Source of the DNA: Candidatus Micrarchaeota archaeon
GTDB taxonomy: Archaea; B1Sed10-29
Direction of reading: 5' to 3'
DNA: 32,797 nt
Assembly (NCBI GenBank): GCA_964388265.1
Contig: CAYLXZ010000006.1
Coordinates: 1-32,797 of the forward strand
Under the pieces are notes generated by a model. That model was not told where the DNA came from. It made no database searches and saw only the letters and a list, made by a program, of their open reading frames with translations. Made by a program: the position numbers and the translations under genes. The first letter of the stretch is position 1; each line of letters starts with the position of its first letter. Below are positions 3,641-31,765 of the stretch, piece by piece.

Positions 3641-4024
3641 ATGACCGAGAAAAGACAAATATATAAATGTGAAGTATGTGGAAACATCGTAGAAGTAGTT
3701 CATGAAGGAGTAGGGGAACTAGTATGCTGTGGAGAACCGATGAAATTACTAGAAGCAGGTACAGAAGACGAAGGATATGAAAAACACGTTCCTGTGATAG
3801 AGGAAACTGAAGAAGGAATAAAAGTAAAAGTAGGGTCCAACCCACATCCAATGGAAGAAGAACACTACATAGAATGGATACAGATAATAACTGAAGAAGG
3901 AGAACACAGAGAATACCTGGAACCAGGTCAAAAACCAGAAGCGGAGTTCTCTGTTAAACCAAGTGAAATCAAGACAGCAAGAGAACACTGTAACATCCAT
4001 GGGCTATGGAAAACACCTGAATAG
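3641..4024 (+). CDS. dfx: Desulfoferrodoxin (2Fe superoxide reductase)
   Basis: N-terminal CEVCGN...CCGEPM desulforedoxin centre, followed by SOR motifs [17 protein letters not shown] and CNIHGLW. Confidence 0.95.
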
Positions 4025-4044
4025 ACAAAAAGGAGGTGAAATAT

Positions 4045-4329
4045 ATGTTATCCGAGATACCGATAGACTTAGATAAAATAAGTCAAGAAGACCTAGACAA
4101 AGAGATACTTAGAAAAAGCGTGATAGCGGAACTAGATGCAATAGACCTGTACGAGCAGATGGCACACATGACCAATGATAAGAACCTTAAGAAAGTGCTT
4201 CTAGATGTAGCAAAAGAAGAAAAAGAACATGTAGGAGAGTTCCAAGAAATGCTGGCTAGAAGAGACCCTGAACTAGTGGAAGAAATGGAAGAGGGAAAGG
4301 AAGAAGTCAAGGAAATGACAGGTAAGTAA
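4045..4329 (+). CDS. Ferritin-like protein of the encapsulated-ferritin (EncFtn/Flp) type, 94 aa
   Basis: Half-ferritin diiron motifs AELDAIDLYEQ...DVAKEEKEHVGEF. Start moved from 4036 to the in-frame ATG at 4045 because GGAGGTGA (4032-4039) is a Shine-Dalgarno sequence. Confidence 0.85.
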   Translation: MLSEIPIDLDKISQEDLDKEILRKSVIAELDAIDLYEQMAHMTNDKNLKKVLLDVAKEEKEHVGEFQEMLARRDPELVEEMEEGKEEVKEMTGK

Positions 4330-4504: not shown

Positions 4505-6187
4505 ATGGATGGATTAACACCTTTAACTTTGAACTTTGCAATACTAATAGCAACTGCTACTGCTCTAGTTATAGTAGCTAAAAAACTTAAACAACCTCCA
4601 CTCGTTTCCTATATACTGGCAGGGCTTCTAATTGGACCTGTAGGTCTAGATATAGTTACAGAGACCACTTCAATTGAATTCTTCTCTAAACTAGGTCTTA
4701 GTTTTCTTTTATTTTTAATAGGAACAAAGATGAACTTCAAAGGACTAAAAGATTTATTTAAACCTATACTAAGAATTTCAACGCTTCAGATTCTTATTCA
4801 TGGGGTCTTATCTGCCTCTGTAGCTTTCCTACTAGGGTTTGGAAGAACTGAAGTTATCATAATAACTCTAGCCACTATTTATTCATCAACAGCTGTTATA
4901 GTAAAGCATCTGAGCGATAGAAATGAGGCTTCCACTGTCTACGGAAAGATAGATACAGGTGTCCTCATAGTACAGGATATAGTTGTTGTAACGGCTCTTG
5001 GGTTATTGAGTTCTCCCTCATTAGGTGATCTTGAGGTTCTAGCGGTTAAATTGATTGAGGTGATCTTCTTAATCTCTATAATCGGTTTAGTGGCTTACGC
5101 TTCATCTAAAAAACTTCTTCCAAGGATATTTAGGTTCATAGCTGAAGAGAGACATGTCCTATTCATCAGCGGGATAGCTTGGGTCTTCGCCTTTATAACA
5201 GCTTCAATTTACTTTAATATATCTATAGAGATTGGTGCGTTCCTAGCTGGACTTGCTCTCGGTCAGATACCATACAGGAAAGAGCTAACTGAGAACGTGA
5301 AGCCCCTTACAGATTTCTTCATGGTTGTATTTTTCTCTTCAATAGGTTTAAGTCTTACTGAAGGAACTCTCTTTTTCTACTTGGAAGAAGCGATCATCAC
5401 GTCAGTGATATTCATCATAGGTGGGATTTTAATCATGTTCTTCCTTATCCAACGAGAAAACTTTTCACTTGAAACAGCGTTTAAAGGAAGTGTGAACATG
5501 TCTCAAACCAGTGAATTCTCTCTAATACTAGGAGCTCTTGCAGTTACCCAAGGATTCATCCACTCCAATATTTTAGGATACATTGCTCTCATTGCAATCA
5601 TCACAATGTCCGTATCAGCGTACCTTATCCACTACAATGATCTTCTGTTCAAAAAGATACGTCCTTATTTATCTAGATTCGAATCTGGAGAAGTGGAAAA
5701 AACTGAGGAGGGACTGGAAGGCCACGCATTAATAGTAGGGTATAACCAGATGAGTGAAGCAGTACTGCCTGTAATTCAAGATCACTTCAAACAAGTGGCA
5801 GTAGTGGACAAAGACCCTGAAAAAGTAGAGAGGCTGAAGAAGAAAAACCTGAAGTACATTTTCGGGGACTTCAAGCACAGTAACATCCAAAGATCAATGG
5901 GTTTAGGGAAAGCAGATCTGATAATAAGCTTCGCTGAAGAAGAAGCACTAAACAGAGAAATAATAGAGGAATGTAGGGAGGATGCATTAGTATTCATAGA
6001 AACCAGATCCATAGAGCAAGCTGCCGAATACTATGACTTAGGAGCAGATTACATTATAAGAGAAAACGAACTCACTGCTGAAAAAATGAAAGATTACCTT
6101 GGTCAATTTATTGAAGATACACCTAAATTCATGGAGAAAGTGGAGAAAGATAGAGAGTCACTCATATGGGGTGGAGAGAGTGATTGA
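4505..6187 (+). CDS. CPA2 (Kef-type) cation:proton antiporter with C-terminal RCK/TrkA-N domain, copy 1
   Basis: Many hydrophobic segments, motifs SSTAVIVK, GVLIVQD, GAFLAG and SQTSEFS, and a C-terminal Rossmann-like region HALIVGY..VVDKDP..IFGD. Confidence 0.9.
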   Translation: MDGLTPLTLNFAILIATATALVIVAKKLKQPPLVSYILAGLLIGPVGLDIVTETTSIEFFSKLGLSFLLFLIGTKMNFKGLKDLFKPILRISTLQILIHGVLSASVAFLLGFGRTEVIIITLATIYSSTAVIVKHLSDRNEASTVYGKIDTGVLIVQDIVVVTALGLLSSPSLGDLEVLAVKLIEVIFLISIIGLVAYASSKKLLPRIFRFIAEERHVLFISGIAWVFAFITASIYFNISIEIGAFLAGLALGQIPYRKELTENVKPLTDFFMVVFFSSIGLSLTEGTLFFYLEEAIITSVIFIIGGILIMFFLIQRENFSLETAFKGSVNMSQTSEFSLILGALAVTQGFIHSNILGYIALIAIITMSVSAYLIHYNDLLFKKIRPYLSRFESGEVEKTEEGLEGHALIVGYNQMSEAVLPVIQDHFKQVAVVDKDPEKVERLKKKNLKYIFGDFKHSNIQRSMGLGKADLIISFAEEEALNREIIEECREDALVFIETRSIEQAAEYYDLGADYIIRENELTAEKMKDYLGQFIEDTPKFMEKVEKDRESLIWGGESD

Positions 6188-6188
6188 A

Positions 6189-7799
6189 ATGATAAATTCT
6201 CTCTCGCTAGTGTTCATAGTAGCTTCGATAATGCTATTCATATTCTATAAATTGAATCACCCTCATATTCCTGCCTATATAATCGCAGGGATTCTAGTAT
6301 CTCCGTTCGTGAGTGAAGCTGGAATTATACCTCTAGCTGAGATAGGTATAGCTTTCTTGGTATTTATATTTGGATCTAGCCTGAAGCTAGAAGAAACTGA
6401 GAAAGCCATGGAAAGCACAGCCATACTAACAATAAGCCAAGTAGCAATAATTGGGTCCCTAGTATTTCTTTACGCCTACATAATTGGCTTTGGGGCTCTT
6501 AATTCAATTTACCTAGCTGTAGCAGCTTCCTTAAGCTCATCGTTGGTTGGAATGGAATTAATAGAAGGTAGAAGAATTAAGTTAGCATATAAAAGACTCT
6601 GTAATTCTATAAATTTAACTCAGGACCTCATTGCCATATTAGTTTTCTTGGTCCTTGCTTCTTTCCCACTCACTCAGGCAGGGGTTCTTTCAAACATACA
6701 GATAGGAGCGTTAATATTGCTCTTAGGGTTTATGGCTCGGTTCTTAGTTCCTTATCTGCTTGAATTCCTGAAACGTTCATCTGAAGCCTCAATGCTCGTG
6801 GCTCTTGCCTTGCTACTGTCCTTTACTTCTTTATCTCAGTATTTCGGTATCTCAATCGTGATAGGTTCATTCGCGGCTGGGATTGCTTTATCAAAACCTC
6901 CTTATGATGAAGAGATAATAGATATATTCGAACCACTTAAAGACTTCTTCTCGGCCTTATTTTTCGTTTCTTTAGGTGCTTTAGTTATGATTCCAAATCT
7001 ATCGATTATATTAACATCTTTAGGGTTAATAGTTGTTATAACGATAGTAAAACCACTTTTCACTGTCTTACTGCTTGAATCTGAAGGATATAGTAGGGGA
7101 ACCTCTCTTATGACTGCGCTTAACCTTGATCAGATGAGTGAATTTGCCTTGATACTAGCTATCTATGCTTACGTGGCGGATATGATTATTCCTACTGTTT
7201 TCCAGGCTATTATACTGTCAGCAGTGGTTACAATGATAATAAGCTCTTATACTAGCAGACATGTTTGGGATATCTATGACAGGGTAAAGGGCTACTGGCT
7301 GTTCAATCTCTCTAACCTGGAGTTCGTGGAATCAGAGGTGCCTCAAGATCTCTCTGGCCACTTCATTATAGCAGGATATGATATACAGGGAGGGGAAATA
7401 GCTGATTTCCTCGAGGAAAAAGACCAACAAGTAGTCGTGATTGATAATGATCCTGAAAGAATTCTTGAAGCTAAAGAGAAAGATATGAACTATATATATG
7501 GGGATTTAATGATCCAGAAAACCTGGGAAGAAGCAAGATTTAAAGAAGCACAGATGATTATATCAACAGTTCCACTTCAGAACATAACAGAAAAAGTAAT
7601 TGGGTTAGGTACCTCAGCATACAAAATAGTTCGTGCGAAACATCTTGAAGAGGCTAGAAGATACATAGAAGATGTATTGTACGTGATAGTTCCCAGGTAT
7701 TTATCTTCTAATAGATTAATTGAGCATCTTAAGGGTTGTCTGAACAGCGAGGGTTATAGAAAGAAGCTTAGAAGGATAAGTAGAACAGAGTTAACTTAA
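6189..7799 (+). CDS. CPA2 (Kef-type) cation:proton antiporter with C-terminal RCK/TrkA-N domain, copy 2
   Basis: SSSLVG, NLTQD, GSFAAG, DQMSEFA and HFIIAGY..VIDNDP..IYGD. Start moved to the in-frame ATG at 6189, 1 nt after the copy 1 stop, because the track's TTG at 6099 overlaps copy 1 by 89 nt. Confidence 0.88.
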   Translation: MINSLSLVFIVASIMLFIFYKLNHPHIPAYIIAGILVSPFVSEAGIIPLAEIGIAFLVFIFGSSLKLEETEKAMESTAILTISQVAIIGSLVFLYAYIIGFGALNSIYLAVAASLSSSLVGMELIEGRRIKLAYKRLCNSINLTQDLIAILVFLVLASFPLTQAGVLSNIQIGALILLLGFMARFLVPYLLEFLKRSSEASMLVALALLLSFTSLSQYFGISIVIGSFAAGIALSKPPYDEEIIDIFEPLKDFFSALFFVSLGALVMIPNLSIILTSLGLIVVITIVKPLFTVLLLESEGYSRGTSLMTALNLDQMSEFALILAIYAYVADMIIPTVFQAIILSAVVTMIISSYTSRHVWDIYDRVKGYWLFNLSNLEFVESEVPQDLSGHFIIAGYDIQGGEIADFLEEKDQQVVVIDNDPERILEAKEKDMNYIYGDLMIQKTWEEARFKEAQMIISTVPLQNITEKVIGLGTSAYKIVRAKHLEEARRYIEDVLYVIVPRYLSSNRLIEHLKGCLNSEGYRKKLRRISRTELT

Positions 7800-16047: not shown

Positions 16048-17133
16048 ATGGTTAAAATCCCTTTCCTCAATAAACTTAGAAAACCCCAAGAGAAGATAGA
16101 GATAGAGAAACAGATAAAGCAACTTAATAAAGAGAAAGCAGAGCTTAAATCAAGCAAGAAAGAACTAGAAGAGATGGATAGAGACACTTCAGATATAGAT
16201 GAAGAGCTTCAAGAGATAGAGAAGAAACTAAAGAAAAGATACGATGAACTAGCTAACTTAGAATACAAACAAGCGTTAAATGAGATAGGAGAGAAGTCGA
16301 AAGAGAAGAAAGTAACTTTAAGTAGAATGAAAGGTGAATTAAAAGAAGAGAGAAAGAAGAGAAGAAGACTTGAAACCAAGCTAGAGGAACTTGAAGAGAA
16401 AAAAGAATCACTGAAAGAAGATAAAAAAGACTTAGCCAAGAAGATAAACGAACTTGAAGAGAAAGTAAGAGACAAAGAGATGAAGATCCAGCAAAAAGAA
16501 GACATAATCCAGGGCCTCAAAGAAGAACCAGAAAAAGAAGAGAAACCACAGGAAGAACCAGAGCAATCCGAGGAAGAGAAGTCAGGTAGAGAAAAAATAC
16601 TTGAATCTCTGTTAAAAGATTACAGCAGCTACATCGAAGAGAAAGAGAAAAAAACAATCCAGGAAATGAAGGAAATGGTACAGCCGAACAACATAAACCT
16701 AAGAGAGTTCCTAGAAGACATAGAGAAAGACGGCTTGGAAGCATGTGAAGAAGCCTACGATAAAATAATGGATAAAATAGAATCCTGTTCACCACTTCCT
16801 GTCGAGTACTGGATGAACATAAAAACAATGATAGACCTCAAAGCAGCCGGACACAAAGACAAAGCAATACTACTATGCTCAGCATTCCGACACTTCGGCG
16901 CAGAATCCCACGTAGCCATAATAAAACTAGAAAACGGAGAAAGAAGACCCTTAACACAGATAAAAACCAACAATAAATATCTGTTGATAGATCCAAATCA
17001 AAAGCAACCATTCAAAAGATACTACGGAACAAGAGGAGAAATAAAAAACCAATACAAATACAAAGGAAGCAAAATCAGGGAATTCAAGTACCTATTCAAT
17101 GACAGAGAATACATAACCTATGAAGAAACATAA
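16048..17133 (+). CDS. Coiled-coil protein with C-terminal transglutaminase-like domain (probably inactive)
   Basis: About 150 aa of K/E heptads, then YW...AGHKDKAILLCSAFR.FG...YLLIDP, which resembles the YW..P......GDCED.AILL.S..R..G...LDP pattern. Confidence 0.6.
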   Translation: MVKIPFLNKLRKPQEKIEIEKQIKQLNKEKAELKSSKKELEEMDRDTSDIDEELQEIEKKLKKRYDELANLEYKQALNEIGEKSKEKKVTLSRMKGELKEERKKRRRLETKLEELEEKKESLKEDKKDLAKKINELEEKVRDKEMKIQQKEDIIQGLKEEPEKEEKPQEEPEQSEEEKSGREKILESLLKDYSSYIEEKEKKTIQEMKEMVQPNNINLREFLEDIEKDGLEACEEAYDKIMDKIESCSPLPVEYWMNIKTMIDLKAAGHKDKAILLCSAFRHFGAESHVAIIKLENGERRPLTQIKTNNKYLLIDPNQKQPFKRYYGTRGEIKNQYKYKGSKIREFKYLFNDREYITYEET

Positions 17134-18716: not shown

Positions 18717-19661
18717 ATGAAATCACAAACCCTAGAAAAGGCAAGAACCTACCTGGAAAAATCCCCACAGGGAACATTCACACTTCTAACAGTATCTTTA
18801 ATAGGATTAACTTACCTTTTCCTGTCCTACAATTATCTCTACATCCCTAACGAAAAACTATTATCCTACGGGTTTGAACTATCCAACCCACTGGGAGCAA
18901 TAACCTATTCATTCCTCCACCTAAGCCCCCAGCACATAATAGCGAACGTAGCTCTCCTTCTAGCAGTAGGGATAATAGCTGAAAAGAAACTCAACTTCAA
19001 AGACTACTTCACCATATTCTTCACCTCAGCAATAACAGCAGGAGTAGCCTTCCAGCTATTAACACCAACACCTACTGTACTCGTCGGAGCATCCTCAGCC
19101 GTATCAGGAATACTCGCAGTAGCAGTATTCGTGGACTTCAAGAAAACCATCCCAGCAATACTAATCTTCGGACTATTCCTAAGCATCGTATCCCCAGCAG
19201 TAACTACCTACACAGAAAAACAGCTAGGGTTACTGGAAAATGAAACAACTGAACTAGGAAAACAATATAATAAAACAAAAGAAAAAATAGAAGAGTCTCA
19301 ACAACAGTTAGAGAACCTTACAATCATGATATCCAGATTAAAAGAAGAATGTCTAATCAAAGAAAACGAAACAGCATGCGTAAAATGGAAAGAACTAAAT
19401 AAAACTCTGAAAGAAAAAGAAGAAAAAGAAGAAGAACTACAAGAAAAAGAGAACGAAACCGTGAAGGACCTGAACAAAACCATGACGGACCAGATGAAAC
19501 TAGAACAAGGAATAAAAAGAGAAGAAAGAGCAAAAACAAGCGCTATAGTACATCTAATAGGAGCCTTCACAGGCATAGGATACCTCTGCATATTCAGGAG
19601 AGATATATTATGGAGTCTACCCTCTCAAGCCTCACAATTAGAAAACTACTTCCAGAAATAA
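18717..19661 (+). CDS. Rhomboid-family intramembrane serine protease with a large coiled-coil insertion
   Basis: FLH....HI..N, VGASSA (Ser126), AIVHLIG (His279) and six hydrophobic segments. Confidence 0.82.
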   Translation: MKSQTLEKARTYLEKSPQGTFTLLTVSLIGLTYLFLSYNYLYIPNEKLLSYGFELSNPLGAITYSFLHLSPQHIIANVALLLAVGIIAEKKLNFKDYFTIFFTSAITAGVAFQLLTPTPTVLVGASSAVSGILAVAVFVDFKKTIPAILIFGLFLSIVSPAVTTYTEKQLGLLENETTELGKQYNKTKEKIEESQQQLENLTIMISRLKEECLIKENETACVKWKELNKTLKEKEEKEEELQEKENETVKDLNKTMTDQMKLEQGIKREERAKTSAIVHLIGAFTGIGYLCIFRRDILWSLPSQASQLENYFQK

Positions 19662-21046: not shown

Positions 21047-24000
21047 ATGCCGGCATTAACCATCACAGCAACAGGGGGAGCAGCCCTAACAGCGATACAA
21101 GCAATATCAGCAATTAACCTACTTACAGTAAGTTTTCCTGGATTAAATTTCCTATCGAACGGAGCACCTACCTCTAACTCCATCTCAAACATAGTAGAAA
21201 AAACAAACCAACTAGAAACACCTTCTCATCTTCATTCCTATCTTCAGAAAAACCAGATAAACCAACCAATAGATAAAAAACTAGAGAAATCTATCCTAAA
21301 CGCTGAGAAAGCCAAAAAACACGCTGAAGAAACCCTGGAAGAATATAGATTAATCTTCACAGTAACAGGAATAAATCTAAAAGCTCTCTCAAGAACCATG
21401 AAAAACAAACGAAAAACAGAGAAACATTACAATCTAGCTATGAAGAACACAAAATCTATGTATAAAGAAATAACAAAAGACCTGCTCGAAGAACACCAAA
21501 AACTGAGCTTCCTAGGAGCAGACACCAACTACACAGGCCCCATAACCCAGATCCATGAAAAAACCAAAGAAATAATAAAAAACCTAAACAGAGAAAAATG
21601 CGGAGACGAAAAAGACATCTCAACCACAGTAGGATGCCTGACAAAAGATATAAACACCTACAGAAACACAACAGGCGAATTCACACCTTCACTCTACAAC
21701 AAGATAACACAAACTCTGATTCCCAAATACTCCGAACTAAAGAAACAGATCAATAAAAAGACAGATAACCTCAAACAAGAATACAGAGAAACCGAGAAAC
21801 TACAAAAAAGAAATATAAACAAAGCAAACGAGAAACTACATGAACTCGAAGCACAGAAAACAACTTTAATCAACTGGAACCCAGGATCAACCCAAAAAAA
21901 CCAAATAGAAACCAGCATAGCAGGAACACCAAGACAACAGCTACTGAAAATAAAAGAAAACCAAGAAGAATCCAGATTCCTGGCTGAAAAAGCAGAAAAC
22001 ATAAAGAAATCAAAGAAAGAAAACTACCTAGTTCAATCAGTTAAAAAATACAAGAAATCGCTAAGTAAAGCCGAAATTACCTATAAAGAATCAAAAAACC
22101 TCTTAAAAAGACTTCGAAACATAGAGAAATCATACAAAGATAAAATAAAGAAATTAAGAAGCCAACTGAAACAGACTCTAACCAGCAGATACTGGGAAAG
22201 GATAGAAACCAGATACAAAAAATCTCTACAGCAATCCACCTATGGTGAAAGAATAAAATCGTTGAAAAACACCTATCAATACATCAAATCAATCAAGAAC
22301 GCCGAAGATAAAGAGATAATACCGATAAAGAACAAGATACAGAACCTACTAAAGAGAATTCAGAAGTACCAGGACCTTGGATACGACTTTGAAGACAAAA
22401 TAAAGAAATTAAAACACCTTCAGAAAGTGAAAGACCCTGAGATGATTCCAAGAACCTATGAAGTATACAATGAAATAAAGAGATTAGTTGAAAAAAGACT
22501 CACGCCACTAAGACAAAAAATAGAAAGAAAAAGACAAGAATCATCCCAATACCTCAAATCAGCAGAAGAACTACGGAAGACACCATCAACCCAAGAAAGC
22601 ATCAACACACAGCTACTGAAGAAACTAAAACAAGAACACAGAGAAACAAGAAATAAACCACCTCTCAAACAACCAAAACAAACGCTCAAAACCTACAATA
22701 AGATAATAAACCAGATACACACCTCCATAAAACAACTAAAATCCAAATTACTCTCCAAAAACACCCAAATAAAAACCAAAACAGAGAAAACAGTATCTTG
22801 TAACCAGCAAATAAAAAGAGAACTAACTCTAACAACCAAGAACCCTCTCCAAGTTCCTTTATACGATACAAAAATAACAAAAACAATAAAGAAACCAGAA
22901 GAAGAAATCAACTTCTACATACCAGTACTAGAACCAGGTCAAATCACCCAAAGAACCACCACTACAACCATAACTCCATACAGATGTAATTTAATCTCAG
23001 AAAGCGATATACAAGCTACAGAGAACTGGATAACCAAGATGAAGAAGATAAAGATTGAAAGAAACGTAGAGTCCACAGAGGTCTTCATCACCCAATACAT
23101 ACCAAAAAACGCCGAGATAATACACCTAGAAAAAAGTAAAAGAACAAAAAAAGGACGAATAAAGCTAAATATAAACTCAGAACAAGAAAACATAACAATA
23201 ACCTATAAAAAACCACCAAAACTAGATATAGAAGGACATAAAGAAATAAATCCAAGTAAAAGAACTCAATACATCATTAATATAATTAATAACGGAGATA
23301 AGATCTCAAACTTTACACTAACCCGGAGCATAGACCCAATAGGAAAAATTGAAAGCAACTACCCAATTGAAGAATCAGAAAACCACGTTAAGATAACAAT
23401 ACCTGAACTAGGTGCACGAGAAAAAATCAAGATGACATACAAGCCAAAGAGCCTGAAAAAAGAAGCTAAAAAAAATTTAATGAGATTAAACCAACTTAAC
23501 TACACCAAAGATGCCTCAAAGCACCTTATGAGTAGATTAAAAGAAATAAGAAGATTATATAGAGATCAGGAATACAGGGAAGTTATTGAAAAGTCACCTA
23601 ATTTGATCAATGAATTTCGGTCTCTACCTAGCAAATCCAAAGACAACTACACCAAGGATACGGATACTAGGAATGAATCAAATAAAACAGTTCCTAAGTC
23701 CGAAGAAAATGAATTAACAACTATAACCCAAAGAACCTCTAACCTCTGCGAGCTAATAGAATGTAGAGACCTAAAAATGAAATTGGAAGAACTTAAATCC
23801 ACTGAAACTCCACAAGAGAAAAAAATAACCAAGTTAAAAACCCGGTTGAACAATCTTGAGGAAGAGGCTATGAAAAAAGTGAAAAAGAACAAAACCAAGA
23901 TCAAAGAAACATTTAAACTTCTTGAAAAAGCATTCAAAACCGCAGATCAATTTACAACTGAAAACAAAGAGATACCATACACTCAAGAAGATCTAAAATC

Positions 24001-24475
24001 TCTTCAAGAAAGAAAAAAATCTCTTAACAAAAAAGAATTAGTTTTTGGAATAGCTGAACCTTCTTTCACACAACTAGTTGAAGAACACGGTACTGAAAAG
24101 ATAAAAAGAAAGATAGAAAAGAGAAAAGATCTTATAGAAGACGCTGAAGACATGTTATCTAATATTAAAGAATCTTCTATCTTAAGGCTGGAAAGAGCAA
24201 GAAAAATATTCTCTAAAAATAAAAATGAAGTAACCAGAAAATACCTAGAAAAAGCCAAGAACTATCATGAGGAAGGAGAGTACCTTAACTCAATGCTATC
24301 TTCTCATAAAGTAATTCAATTCACTCAAGGGAACTCAGGAAATTCTCTTCCACTAAAATACATAGCTGCAGGCATCATAATCTCCGGAACAACTCTTTAT
24401 ATACTAAAGAAACCGGGAAATGATGAAGAAGACGGTATAGAAGATGTTAAGATGAAATTAAAAAGAGGAAAGTAA
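21047..24475 (+). CDS. Large predicted membrane-anchored protein (helical/coiled-coil, Ig-like, helical, C-terminal TM)
   Basis: 1142 aa with an apolar N-terminus, a central beta-rich region containing IPVLEPGQ and IPELGARE, and C-terminal YIAAGIIISGTTLYIL-KK. Confidence 0.75.
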   Translation: MPALTITATGGAALTAIQAISAINLLTVSFPGLNFLSNGAPTSNSISNIVEKTNQLETPSHLHSYLQKNQINQPIDKKLEKSILNAEKAKKHAEETLEEYRLIFTVTGINLKALSRTMKNKRKTEKHYNLAMKNTKSMYKEITKDLLEEHQKLSFLGADTNYTGPITQIHEKTKEIIKNLNREKCGDEKDISTTVGCLTKDINTYRNTTGEFTPSLYNKITQTLIPKYSELKKQINKKTDNLKQEYRETEKLQKRNINKANEKLHELEAQKTTLINWNPGSTQKNQIETSIAGTPRQQLLKIKENQEESRFLAEKAENIKKSKKENYLVQSVKKYKKSLSKAEITYKESKNLLKRLRNIEKSYKDKIKKLRSQLKQTLTSRYWERIETRYKKSLQQSTYGERIKSLKNTYQYIKSIKNAEDKEIIPIKNKIQNLLKRIQKYQDLGYDFEDKIKKLKHLQKVKDPEMIPRTYEVYNEIKRLVEKRLTPLRQKIERKRQESSQYLKSAEELRKTPSTQESINTQLLKKLKQEHRETRNKPPLKQPKQTLKTYNKIINQIHTSIKQLKSKLLSKNTQIKTKTEKTVSCNQQIKRELTLTTKNPLQVPLYDTKITKTIKKPEEEINFYIPVLEPGQITQRTTTTTITPYRCNLISESDIQATENWITKMKKIKIERNVESTEVFITQYIPKNAEIIHLEKSKRTKKGRIKLNINSEQENITITYKKPPKLDIEGHKEINPSKRTQYIINIINNGDKISNFTLTRSIDPIGKIESNYPIEESENHVKITIPELGAREKIKMTYKPKSLKKEAKKNLMRLNQLNYTKDASKHLMSRLKEIRRLYRDQEYREVIEKSPNLINEFRSLPSKSKDNYTKDTDTRNESNKTVPKSEENELTTITQRTSNLCELIECRDLKMKLEELKSTETPQEKKITKLKTRLNNLEEEAMKKVKKNKTKIKETFKLLEKAFKTADQFTTENKEIPYTQEDLKSLQERKKSLNKKELVFGIAEPSFTQLVEEHGTEKIKRKIEKRKDLIEDAEDMLSNIKESSILRLERARKIFSKNKNEVTRKYLEKAKNYHEEGEYLNSMLSSHKVIQFTQGNSGNSLPLKYIAAGIIISGTTLYILKKPGNDEEDGIEDVKMKLKRGK

Positions 24476-30619: not shown

Positions 30620-31765
30620 GTGAAGAAAAGCGGTTTCATATTAATAGCTATAATCGTTGTAGGGTTGTCTCTAGGACCATTAACCTATTTCTCAGGAATC
30701 GGAGGCGACGGAAAAGAACTCGGACCAGCCAACGAAACCCAGGGAAACCAAGAGAACTTCTATGTAGCTTCATCGAACTTCACAGGATACGTGGAAGAGG
30801 TAGAACCCTACGTGTACTTCGAAGGAATAAAAGAAAGCAACAACGCCACTAAAGCAAAGGAGGAGATCGCTTCAGTTCTTCCAGAAATCGAGAACTATTC
30901 TCTAGGTCTTGAATTAGGTCAAAACGGATGGATTTATAGTATAAAAGTTCCTGTGGAAAACTTATCTCATGCGAGTGAGGTAGGGTTTAAGCTTGACTTC
31001 CTTCTCTCTTTGTATTATTCTGATTCAGTTAATCCTTACAAGCCTGCTAAAGTAAAGATGCCAGATACTGTGAAGGGTAAAACTAAGGAAGGAGAAATAA
31101 TAAATATTAAAACCAGTAATAAAACAGTAGATTCTACTTTAGTGTATTCTGAAGAGGGGGGAGATGTAAAAATATCTTGTTCAAGACTTCTAACAAGTTT
31201 GAATGGTGAATTAACAGAAAATATGGGTCAGTGTGCTCAACCTAAGCTTAGTTTGTATAAAAAAGCAGATAAAGAAAATATTAAAGATCTTGAGTATATA
31301 GTTACAAAAGACCACTTTGAAAGGGTAGGTGGAAAGACTCATAAGTTAAATCAAACTCTTAATATCACGGATCGGAAATATAGAGCAATTTATTCATATA
31401 ACAACACTAATAAAGCTATGCAAGTGATTAATACCATCGATTCAGAAGTAAAACCAAGGGATGGATCTAAAACTATAACAATAATAGATGAAAACCACTC
31501 GAATCTCTTAAAATCTATGGATAAGCTTAATGATGGAGGACTGAAGCAAAGAAGCCCTATAGGGAAAATAGTAGAAGTAGATATACCTGAAAAGATAGAA
31601 GTTGGGGAGAAACAATTTCCTATATTAAGGCCAAAGTTAAACTCGGCGAAATTAAGTGTTCCAATGCAACTTGATAAGGATAAGGTGAAATGTGAAGTTA
31701 CTTATGGTATCCTTTATGGATACGTCTTTGCCACCCCTGAAGTTAGATTCGTTGGAGATGTCTAA
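30620..31765 (+). CDS. Hypothetical exported or membrane-anchored glycoprotein
   Basis: Signal/anchor MKKSGFILIAIIVVGLSLG, about ten N-x-S/T sequons, beta-rich sequence, and GGTGA before the GTG start. Confidence 0.75.
   Translation: MKKSGFILIAIIVVGLSLGPLTYFSGIGGDGKELGPANETQGNQENFYVASSNFTGYVEEVEPYVYFEGIKESNNATKAKEEIASVLPEIENYSLGLELGQNGWIYSIKVPVENLSHASEVGFKLDFLLSLYYSDSVNPYKPAKVKMPDTVKGKTKEGEIINIKTSNKTVDSTLVYSEEGGDVKISCSRLLTSLNGELTENMGQCAQPKLSLYKKADKENIKDLEYIVTKDHFERVGGKTHKLNQTLNITDRKYRAIYSYNNTNKAMQVINTIDSEVKPRDGSKTITIIDENHSNLLKSMDKLNDGGLKQRSPIGKIVEVDIPEKIEVGEKQFPILRPKLNSAKLSVPMQLDKDKVKCEVTYGILYGYVFATPEVRFVGDV

Follow-up and report, generated by a model that had tools for sequence, protein, structure and literature searches.

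A rhomboid-family protein with a predicted helical stalk between its last two transmembrane segments, and the archaeal subfamily to which it belongs

GlpG of Escherichia coli and Haemophilus influenzae is the structural prototype of the rhomboid proteases. Its catalytic dyad, S201 and H254, has a spacing of 53 residues, and the available excerpt of PMC10355837, from which these positions are taken, describes a lateral gate between transmembrane segments (TM) 2 and 5, a cap formed by loop 5 (L5) between TM5 and TM6, and a correlation of TM5 dynamics with GlpG activity. How substrates reach the buried active site, through the lateral TM2/TM5 gate or past the L5 cap, is treated as a matter of debate in the accessible parts of PMC10355837 and PMC12615303. 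Among archaeal rhomboids, RhoII (HVO_0727) of Haloferax volcanii is the only one with phenotype data that was found in the literature searched; according to the accessible part of PMC9263693, its deletion truncates an N-linked oligosaccharide of the S-layer glycoprotein, and adhesion and motility are affected. Here we describe a rhomboid-family protein encoded at 18717..19661 on the forward strand of a 32,797-nucleotide contig from a Candidatus Micrarchaeota archaeon (CAYLXZ010000006.1, assembly GCA_964388265.1), the whole of which is referred to below as the window. The protein is a real structural variant of a known enzyme family, and its architecture is new, being widespread rather than unique. 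The best overall explanation, which on balance we consider probable, is an active stalked rhomboid with a glycosylated hairpin outside the cell, a Cys pair at the tip of the hairpin and a function of the hairpin as gate lever or docking arm.

The open reading frame (ORF) translates to 314 amino acids. Its product belongs to the rhomboid family (Pfam PF01694 / MEROPS S54), and each of the five defining features tested was found. With 64.9 bits (E=1.2e-17), the match to PF01694 clears the cut-off of 22.6; it spans only residues 61-153, corresponding to profile positions 7-99 of 143; the TM6 part falls under the threshold, and in place of the split match that the initial annotation had expected there is a single stretch. 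All of the catalytic motifs listed in that annotation are present where it put them. TM2 carries H73-x3-N77, the oxyanion-stabilising His/Asn position, with H68 ahead of it, and in TM6 the His is accompanied by the G-x3-G packing motif (H279-x2-G282-x3-G286). Conservation was assessed in two alignments, one of the window protein with 11 homologues (12 sequences, A1) and one of 68 sequences (A2); structure predictions were made with AlphaFold2 (AF2). The whole gene, its catalytic motifs and its tail are as follows.

18717..19661 (+): whole ORF, predicted intramembrane serine protease of the rhomboid family, with a hairpin inserted between TM5 and TM6 (314 residues; Pfam, AF2)
18918..18947 (+): TM2 motif H68xxxxH73xxxN77 (H68-L-S-P-Q-H73-I-I-A-N77; regular expression)
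19086..19097 (+): start of TM4, G124-A-S126-S127, with S126 the predicted nucleophile (regular expression)
19542..19595 (+): TM6 (residues 276-293) with H279-L-I-G282-A-F-T-G286, H279 being the predicted general base (regular expression, weak profile alignment)
19596..19661 (+): conserved tail, predicted cytoplasmic, F293-RRDI...Q304 (F293, R294, R295, D296, I297 and Q304 invariant in A1)

Residues G124, S126 and H279 are invariant in all 68 sequences of A2, and H68, H73 and N77 are conserved in at least 90% of them. In the family described below, the residue that follows the Ser is Ala in 97 of 142 members, Ser in 16, Gly in 16, Thr in 10, Ile in two and Leu in one, so that the fourth position of the G-x-S-x motif is small in 139/142. 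By this comparison GASS is an ordinary variant within the family, as are GASA, GAST and GASG, and the altered activity that the initial annotation had read from GASS is therefore not indicated. Conservation of this kind suggests that the product of 18717..19661 is probably an active rhomboid intramembrane serine protease.

The profile of the 68-sequence family matches 17 distinct GlpG sequences, at E-values between 1.8e-07 and 2e-06, and aligns the family's TM2 His/His/Asn stretch with that of E. coli GlpG and, weakly, the His-Gly-Gly stretch of TM6 with the matching stretch of H. influenzae GlpG. In Foldseek searches of the PDB with the window model, 20 of the top 50 matches were GlpG (probability 1.00, target TM-score (TMt) 0.47-0.61), and superposition on E. 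coli GlpG gave a root-mean-square deviation of 2.4-4.0 Å over ~123 columns. With the model of a shorter family member, P0043, GlpG accounted for each of the top 34 PDB matches; TMt reached 0.69 over 243 columns, an alignment that spans TM6. The Foldseek E-values are weak for both models (0.0016-0.02). Every solved rhomboid protease chain matched in the profile and structure searches was GlpG. The predicted six-TM core fold is thus GlpG-like, and it is this fold match that suggests that Ser126 and His279 are juxtaposed. The window protein is not a GlpG orthologue, since it scores 21.6 bits with the NCBIfam GlpG model (TIGR04239) against an equivalog cut-off of 250.

Hydropathy analysis showed six hydrophobic segments, the last two of which (~144-164 and ~274-294) are parted by ~107 polar residues. 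The insert comprises residues 165-271, at nucleotides 19209-19529 between TM5 and TM6, and bears out the earlier description of a ~110-residue insertion between the catalytic Ser and His at about 19200-19530. The AF2 model built on the 68-sequence alignment has a mean predicted local distance difference test score (pLDDT) of 96.6 and a predicted TM-score (pTM) of 0.87. TM4 is modelled as helix 126-139 and is followed by an uninterrupted helix, 141-214, which consists of TM5 and 50 further residues. Helix 218-271 returns, and four residues (A-K-T-S) join it to TM6 at 276-293. Along the stalk, which was modelled as a monomer, pLDDT is 97-98. In the best heptad register, which in arm 1 has residue 170 at position a, 10 hydrophobic residues occupy a/d core positions in arm 1 and eight in arm 2, the middle of arm 2 (residues 232-247) being poor in core hydrophobics. 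Both the heptad-like segment and the antiparallel helical hairpin that had been proposed from the letters of the sequence reappear in the model as two long helices. As a structural description, the insert is very probably an antiparallel two-helix hairpin of ~50 residues per arm. An α-helix rises 1.5 Å per residue, and the stalk would be ~7.5 nm long in the window protein and ~4 nm in short members of the family. The segments of the insert are listed here with the adjoining TM5.

19146..19208 (+): TM5 (residues 144-164), predicted membrane part of the continuous helix 141-214 (hydropathy, AF2)
19209..19358 (+): predicted stalk arm 1 (residues 165-214), outward continuation of TM5 (AF2 helix 141-214)
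19350..19379 (+): predicted hairpin tip C212-LI-KEN-ETA-C221, with the turn at 215-217 (K-E-N), which AF2 models as non-helical; C212 and C221 are conserved in at least 90% of A1
19368..19529 (+): predicted stalk arm 2 (residues 218-271), the return helix (AF2 helix 218-271)
19509..19541 (+): stalk base G265-I-K-R268-E269-E-R-A-K-T274-S275, directly before TM6 (conservation)
19239..19481 (+): span of the seven N-x-T sequons, N175, N217 and N246 (NET), N185, N228 and N253 (NKT) and N200 (NLT)

The base is the most conserved part of the insert. G265, R268, E269, T274 and S275 are invariant in 12/12 sequences of A1, G265 is conserved in at least 90% of the 68 sequences, and a G..[RKT]E motif occurs within ~20 residues ahead of the His in 78 of 142 family members. 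Because it immediately precedes TM6, the base motif is expected to lie above the active site. Apart from base, tip and sequon positions the surface of the stalk is variable, with a mean column identity of 22% in A2. Internal duplication was considered as the origin of the insert and rejected: just one 31-nucleotide pair at 74% identity was found, along with low-complexity AAG/GAA runs. Matches of the insert to NCBIfam coiled-coil models (SMC, MukB, SbcC, SH3_and_anchor) were below threshold and were set aside as compositional noise.

The central Cys pair pointed out in the initial annotation, C212 and C221 within CLIKENETAC, lies three residues before and four residues after the modelled turn. 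With this symmetrical placement the two residues would face each other across the tip. Both are present in 11/12 sequences of A1, and the twelfth has neither. Among the inserts of 146 family members, 12 contain exactly two Cys residues, 8-10 apart, 133 contain none and one contains a single Cys. The 12 two-Cys members constitute the window protein's own subclade, and none of the 82 short forms has the pair. The simplest reading of this arrangement is that a C212-C221 disulfide probably staples the tip.

The distribution of charged residues bears on the orientation of the stalk. Twelve Lys/Arg residues fall in the predicted cytoplasmic segments (four in the N-terminus, three in L2, two in L4 and three in the C-terminal tail) compared with one in L1 and L3 together. 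This pattern obeys the positive-inside rule and fits the GlpG topology, in which the TM5-TM6 connection would be outside. The seven sequons of the initial annotation (three NET, three NKT and one NLT) were confirmed. Every Asn of the insert (7/7) is part of an N-x-T sequon, whereas shuffled inserts contain 0.79 on average and none of 20,000 shuffles reached seven. When 28 ORFs of the window were shuffled in the same way as a control, the rhomboid again stood out, with seven sequons compared with 1.96 (P=0.001); 26 of the 28, mostly obvious cytoplasmic enzymes, were not enriched. Family-wide, 270 sequons were counted in the inserts of 146 members, compared with 69.8 expected, whereas the remainder of the same proteins holds 57 compared with 91.1. 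In A1, each of the seven sequon columns contains a sequon in 6-9 of the 12 sequences. In the heptad register, arm 1 has N175 in position f, N185 in b and N200 in c, arm 2 has N228 in e and both N246 and N253 in b, and N217 falls at the turn; five of the six helical Asn residues are thus at b, c or f, mostly outward faces. Such a sequon pattern is expected of an extracellular segment that is N-glycosylated by an archaeal oligosaccharyltransferase. The enrichment is therefore an argument for the outside location of the stalk that is independent of the charge distribution, and the external placement assumed in the initial annotation agrees with both. It is likely that the stalk is N-glycosylated, at up to seven Asn residues.

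The same window control drew attention to a further ORF at 30620-31762 (+). Its 381-residue product begins with a hydrophobic anchor or signal, contains 10 N-x-S/T sequons compared with 3.13 expected (0/2000 shuffles) and has no Pfam match. This protein is probably a secreted or anchored glycoprotein.

A word-indexed search recovered 11 homologues of 295-364 residues with 33-75% identity to the window protein, and all of them retain the insert. The same architecture in these proteins, which are encoded on other contigs, and at three genome loci considered below rules out an assembly chimera. An exhaustive search of 1.84 billion representatives gave 735 matches with E<=1e-3, of which 130 had E<=1e-10 and 18 had E<=1e-30. 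The best 150 of these 735 matches were considered. Of the 160 family proteins analysed in all, 146 carry the Ser motif as well as the His motif. The Ser-to-His spacing is at least 101 residues in 145 of the 146, the sole exception, P0093, having a doubtful His assignment. The spacings fall into four classes.

Spacing 101-106: 82 members
Spacing 112-131: 31 members (for P0127, P0129 and P0134 the regular expression picked an upstream Gly-x-Ser, and their listed spacings of 120-121 are probably ~104)
Spacing 141-159: 26 members
Spacing 182-219: 6 members

In the AF2 model of the short member P0043 (255 residues; pLDDT 97.5), helices 126-174 and 178-207 are separated by a turn, and TM6 follows at 212-229. 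Judged by the spacings, and by the two AF2 models, one of a long and one of a short form, that display the hairpin, the hairpin is universal in the family and its length is labile. The uniqueness implied by the initial annotation did not hold up: a TM5-TM6 hairpin is the norm throughout a large family (145/146), and the window protein is one of its long-stalk members.

A FastTree phylogeny was computed on 142 cores from which the insert had been removed, leaving out P0093, P0127, P0129 and P0134 as well as 14 proteins in which the two motifs were not both present. The window protein falls in a 12-row clade (SH-like support 99) nested in a 29-row clade (support 99) that also includes spacings of 116, 118, 128, 141-142 and 156. 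Most short forms make up a separate 87-row clade (support 97), and the four spacing classes require at least 16 changes on the core tree. P0058, P0144, P0069, P0113 and P0158 represent a separate deep clade with spacings of 182-219, inside which one member with a spacing of 115 is nested; stalks of this class would exceed 10 nm if fully helical.

For long and short forms alike, the nearest large ESM-Atlas cluster (292 residues, 67 members) is 100% archaeal, with Microcaldota (= Micrarchaeota) the commonest label, and it is these cluster labels that provide the taxonomy of the short forms. NCBI taxonomy places Microcaldota in the DPANN kingdom Nanobdellati, and where relatives could be assigned, they proved to be DPANN archaea. 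Taken together, spacings of at least ~100 residues and the modelled hairpins indicate that the window protein belongs to a large, undescribed subfamily of stalked archaeal rhomboids without a short L5 cap. No description of a helical insert between TM5 and TM6 was found in the literature searched, outside which subscription-only surveys lay. In the accessible text of a 2025 Journal of Biological Chemistry review (PMC12615303) the words 'archaea' and 'coiled' do not occur, and the single mention of 'loop 5' concerns GlpG.

How might such a stalk work? We propose that TM5, the gate helix, would leave the membrane as a long helix, turn, and return antiparallel to the G-x-x-R-E...T-S base that precedes TM6, where the conserved base may stand in for L5 as the cap over the Ser126-His279 dyad. 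Outside the membrane, TM5 and TM6 would be rigidly tied together by the two arms, and because of this tie opening of the TM2/TM5 gate would require a tilt of the whole stalk. The stalk could then serve as a lever or docking arm, with an outside binder or restraint, such as a substrate ectodomain, the S-layer or a neighbouring cell, setting access to the active site. We infer both the catalytic activity and the gating or recruiting role of the stalk; the lever idea, taken by itself, is tentative and perhaps doubtful. A bolder version, which we regard as improbable, makes the stalk a mechanical sensor: contact with the S-layer or a host would tilt a rigid glycosylated rod fused to the gate helix, open the TM2/TM5 gate and trigger substrate cleavage, with stalk lengths tuned to the envelope of each lineage. 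These DPANN archaea are tiny and mostly host-dependent.

Several observations weigh against an active rhomboid with a glycosylated, disulfide-tipped lever or docking arm. The Foldseek alignments of the window model mostly end before TM6 and have E-values of 0.02 at best, and AF2 may be over-confident on long helices. A W-R motif in the L1 loop is important in GlpG-type rhomboids; there is no WR in L1 of the window protein, and the WR of GlpG aligns to non-conserved positions of the family profile. The at least 16 changes of length class argue against one precise length-dependent function. No insert sequon is carried by 45 of the 82 short-form members, so the architecture does not require glycosylation; no AglB gene was seen among the 29 window ORFs scanned. 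The window encodes a desulfoferrodoxin, which suggests an anaerobe and makes an extracellular disulfide less certain. Finally, nothing in the neighbourhood names a substrate.

The strongest of the competing explanations is that the stalk is mainly a substrate-selecting exosite, which would bind the extracellular part of single-pass substrates, perhaps by contacts between helices, and feed their TM segment to the gate with no lever action. Because it continues TM5, the stalk stands in the AF2 model directly above the TM2/TM5 entry side, its conserved base beside the active site could contact the juxtamembrane segment of a substrate, and exosite binding at TM2/TM5 is mentioned in the accessible text of PMC10355837. 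Against it stand the variability of the stalk surface outside base, tip and sequon positions, its labile length and the lack of an identified candidate substrate; densely packed glycans would also be an obstacle to protein-protein contacts along the shaft. We think this explanation unlikely, though still worth weighing. A passive role is less probable again: the stalk might be a glycosylated spacer or tether that spans the distance from membrane to S-layer and positions or immobilises the protease, or shields its active site, without regulating it. The predicted length of ~4-7.5 nm would suit such a part, sequon enrichment is typical of envelope-exposed archaeal proteins, and a cultivated Micrarchaeon has an S-layer according to the accessible text of bioRxiv 10.1101/2021.04.28.441871. 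A mere tether could nevertheless be terminal, whereas here the insertion continues the gate helix and is at the very loop by which the active site is capped, and the strictly conserved base beside H279 points to a role in catalysis or access.

Antiparallel two-helix hairpins often form four-helix bundles, and the stalks of two or more protomers might pair in this manner, with the tip Cys residues forming intermolecular bonds or a shared metal site. The poverty of residues 232-247 in core hydrophobics would agree with this, in that a lone hairpin may be only marginally stable. Against such an oligomerisation module, which we consider very unlikely, are the confident modelling of the hairpin as a monomer, the crowding of the bundle interface that seven outward glycans would cause, and the lack of positive evidence; a two-copy complex prediction on A2 scored 0.00 against a mark of 0.42, an outcome that counts neither way. 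It might also be supposed, from the reading GASS in place of GxSG and from a Pfam match confined to TM2-TM5, that the protein is a catalytically dead rhomboid-like pseudoprotease or an artefact of assembly or annotation. The invariance of G124, S126 and H279 and the normal occurrence of all four GAS-x variants speak against a dead enzyme, and the recurrence of the architecture in 11 homologues on other contigs and at three genome loci with the same gene order speaks against an artefact. By conservation and by recurrence in independent assemblies both are nearly excluded, and we give them the least weight of all.

The neighbours of the rhomboid gene in the window are archaeal housekeeping genes, encoding geranylgeranyl reductase, ferredoxin, NFACT, a proteasome subunit, FttA, NAC, an aCPSF-like beta-CASP protein and ThyX. 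Relatives of the window protein with 48-53% identity were located at three genome loci, two in metagenome-assembled genomes (MAGs) of 'Candidatus Iainarchaeum' and one in a MAG labelled Micrarchaeota (L001-L003). The order geranylgeranyl reductase - rhomboid - NFACT - ~1150-residue protein is kept in all three, and in L001 the genes upstream of the reductase are also in the order of the window. As the three genomes are close relatives, this synteny says little about function. The DPANN archaeon from which the window comes is most likely a member of the Iainarchaeota. The last 52 nucleotides of the rhomboid gene (19610-19661) overlap the start of the NFACT (Rqc2-like) gene, and the overlaps in L001-L003 are 31-43 nucleotides, which suggests co-transcription and a dual-coding constraint on the conserved C-terminal tail.

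The large protein of this cluster is encoded in the window at 21047-24475 (+) and has 1142 residues; it is rich in Lys, Glu and Gln, has a hydrophobic segment near its C-terminus and matches no Pfam or NCBIfam family. Its counterparts are at 8293-11709 in L001, 5946-9476 in L002 and 8489-12097 in L003, in each case downstream of the rhomboid and after NFACT; in the window a small PRC-barrel gene also stands between the rhomboid and the 1142-residue gene. This neighbour may be a tail-anchored protein or a substrate of the rhomboid; the idea that it is a glycosylated surface substrate was rejected. Its sequons are not enriched (nine compared with 12.2 expected) and hence give no support for an extracellular location.

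Three further groups of genes in the window were recorded. At 16048-17133 (+) a 361-residue protein combines a long N-terminal Lys/Glu-rich coiled coil, with sub-threshold SMC/Rad50-like matches, and a C-terminal CEP76 peptidase-like (transglutaminase-like) domain, whose score of 29 bits exceeds the cut-off of 27.8. A pair of neighbouring Na+/H+ exchanger genes that overlap slightly, both encoding a C-terminal TrkA_N domain, occupies 4505-7799 (+). A desulfoferrodoxin gene lies beside an EncFtn/rubrerythrin-like gene at 3641-4329 (+) and points to anaerobic or microaerophilic life.

If the models are correct, the family has replaced the cap loop with a rigid rod that ties TM5 to TM6 outside the membrane, such that any movement of the gate must move the rod. 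With stalks from ~4 to >10 nm, with or without the Cys pair at the tip and with or without sequons, it would offer a natural experiment on rhomboid gating. Should the sensor reading prove true, nature would have provided a contact-activated intramembrane protease with which to test the lateral-gate model against the cap model. The protein would furthermore be a rare example of an intramembrane protease apparently carrying heavy N-glycosylation itself. For the biology of DPANN archaea, it represents a conserved, apparently envelope-exposed protease with a possible part in envelope maturation or cell-cell contact.

Among described rhomboids, H. volcanii RhoII can be likened to the window protein by description, as it is likewise an archaeal rhomboid tied to the cell envelope. 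The link of RhoII to glycosylation is via its targets, whereas in the window protein the protease itself seems to be glycosylated; a TM5-TM6 insert is unmentioned in the accessible part of PMC9263693. Rhombosortase (TIGR03902) is the best NCBIfam match over TM2-TM5 (E=8.1e-13, residues 62-163), yet with 48.6 bits it falls short of the cut-off of 84, and the protein is not a member of that family; no GlyGly-CTERM partner was seen, although none was looked for. The accessory domains of other rhomboids in the ESM-Atlas rows (TPR, WD40, zinc ribbon) are terminal fusions. Within the subfamily, the short-stalk members have the same layout and catalytic motifs as the window protein and differ in their arms, which are predicted to be ~25-30 rather than ~50 residues long. 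GlpG is the best structural match in the PDB for the window model. The two share the six-TM core, H-x4-H-x3-N in TM2, G-x-S-x in TM4 and H-x2-G-x3-G in TM6, and they have the same predicted topology, in which the N-terminus is inside and the link between TM5 and TM6 is outside. Unlike GlpG, the window protein has no N-terminal cytoplasmic domain beyond a 14-residue helix, and the 'WR' motif is missing from its L1 (residues 37-59). The Ser-to-His spacing is 153 residues in the window protein compared with 53 in GlpG, and where GlpG has a short L5 cap, the window protein has instead a predicted two-helix stalk of ~107 residues that continues TM5.

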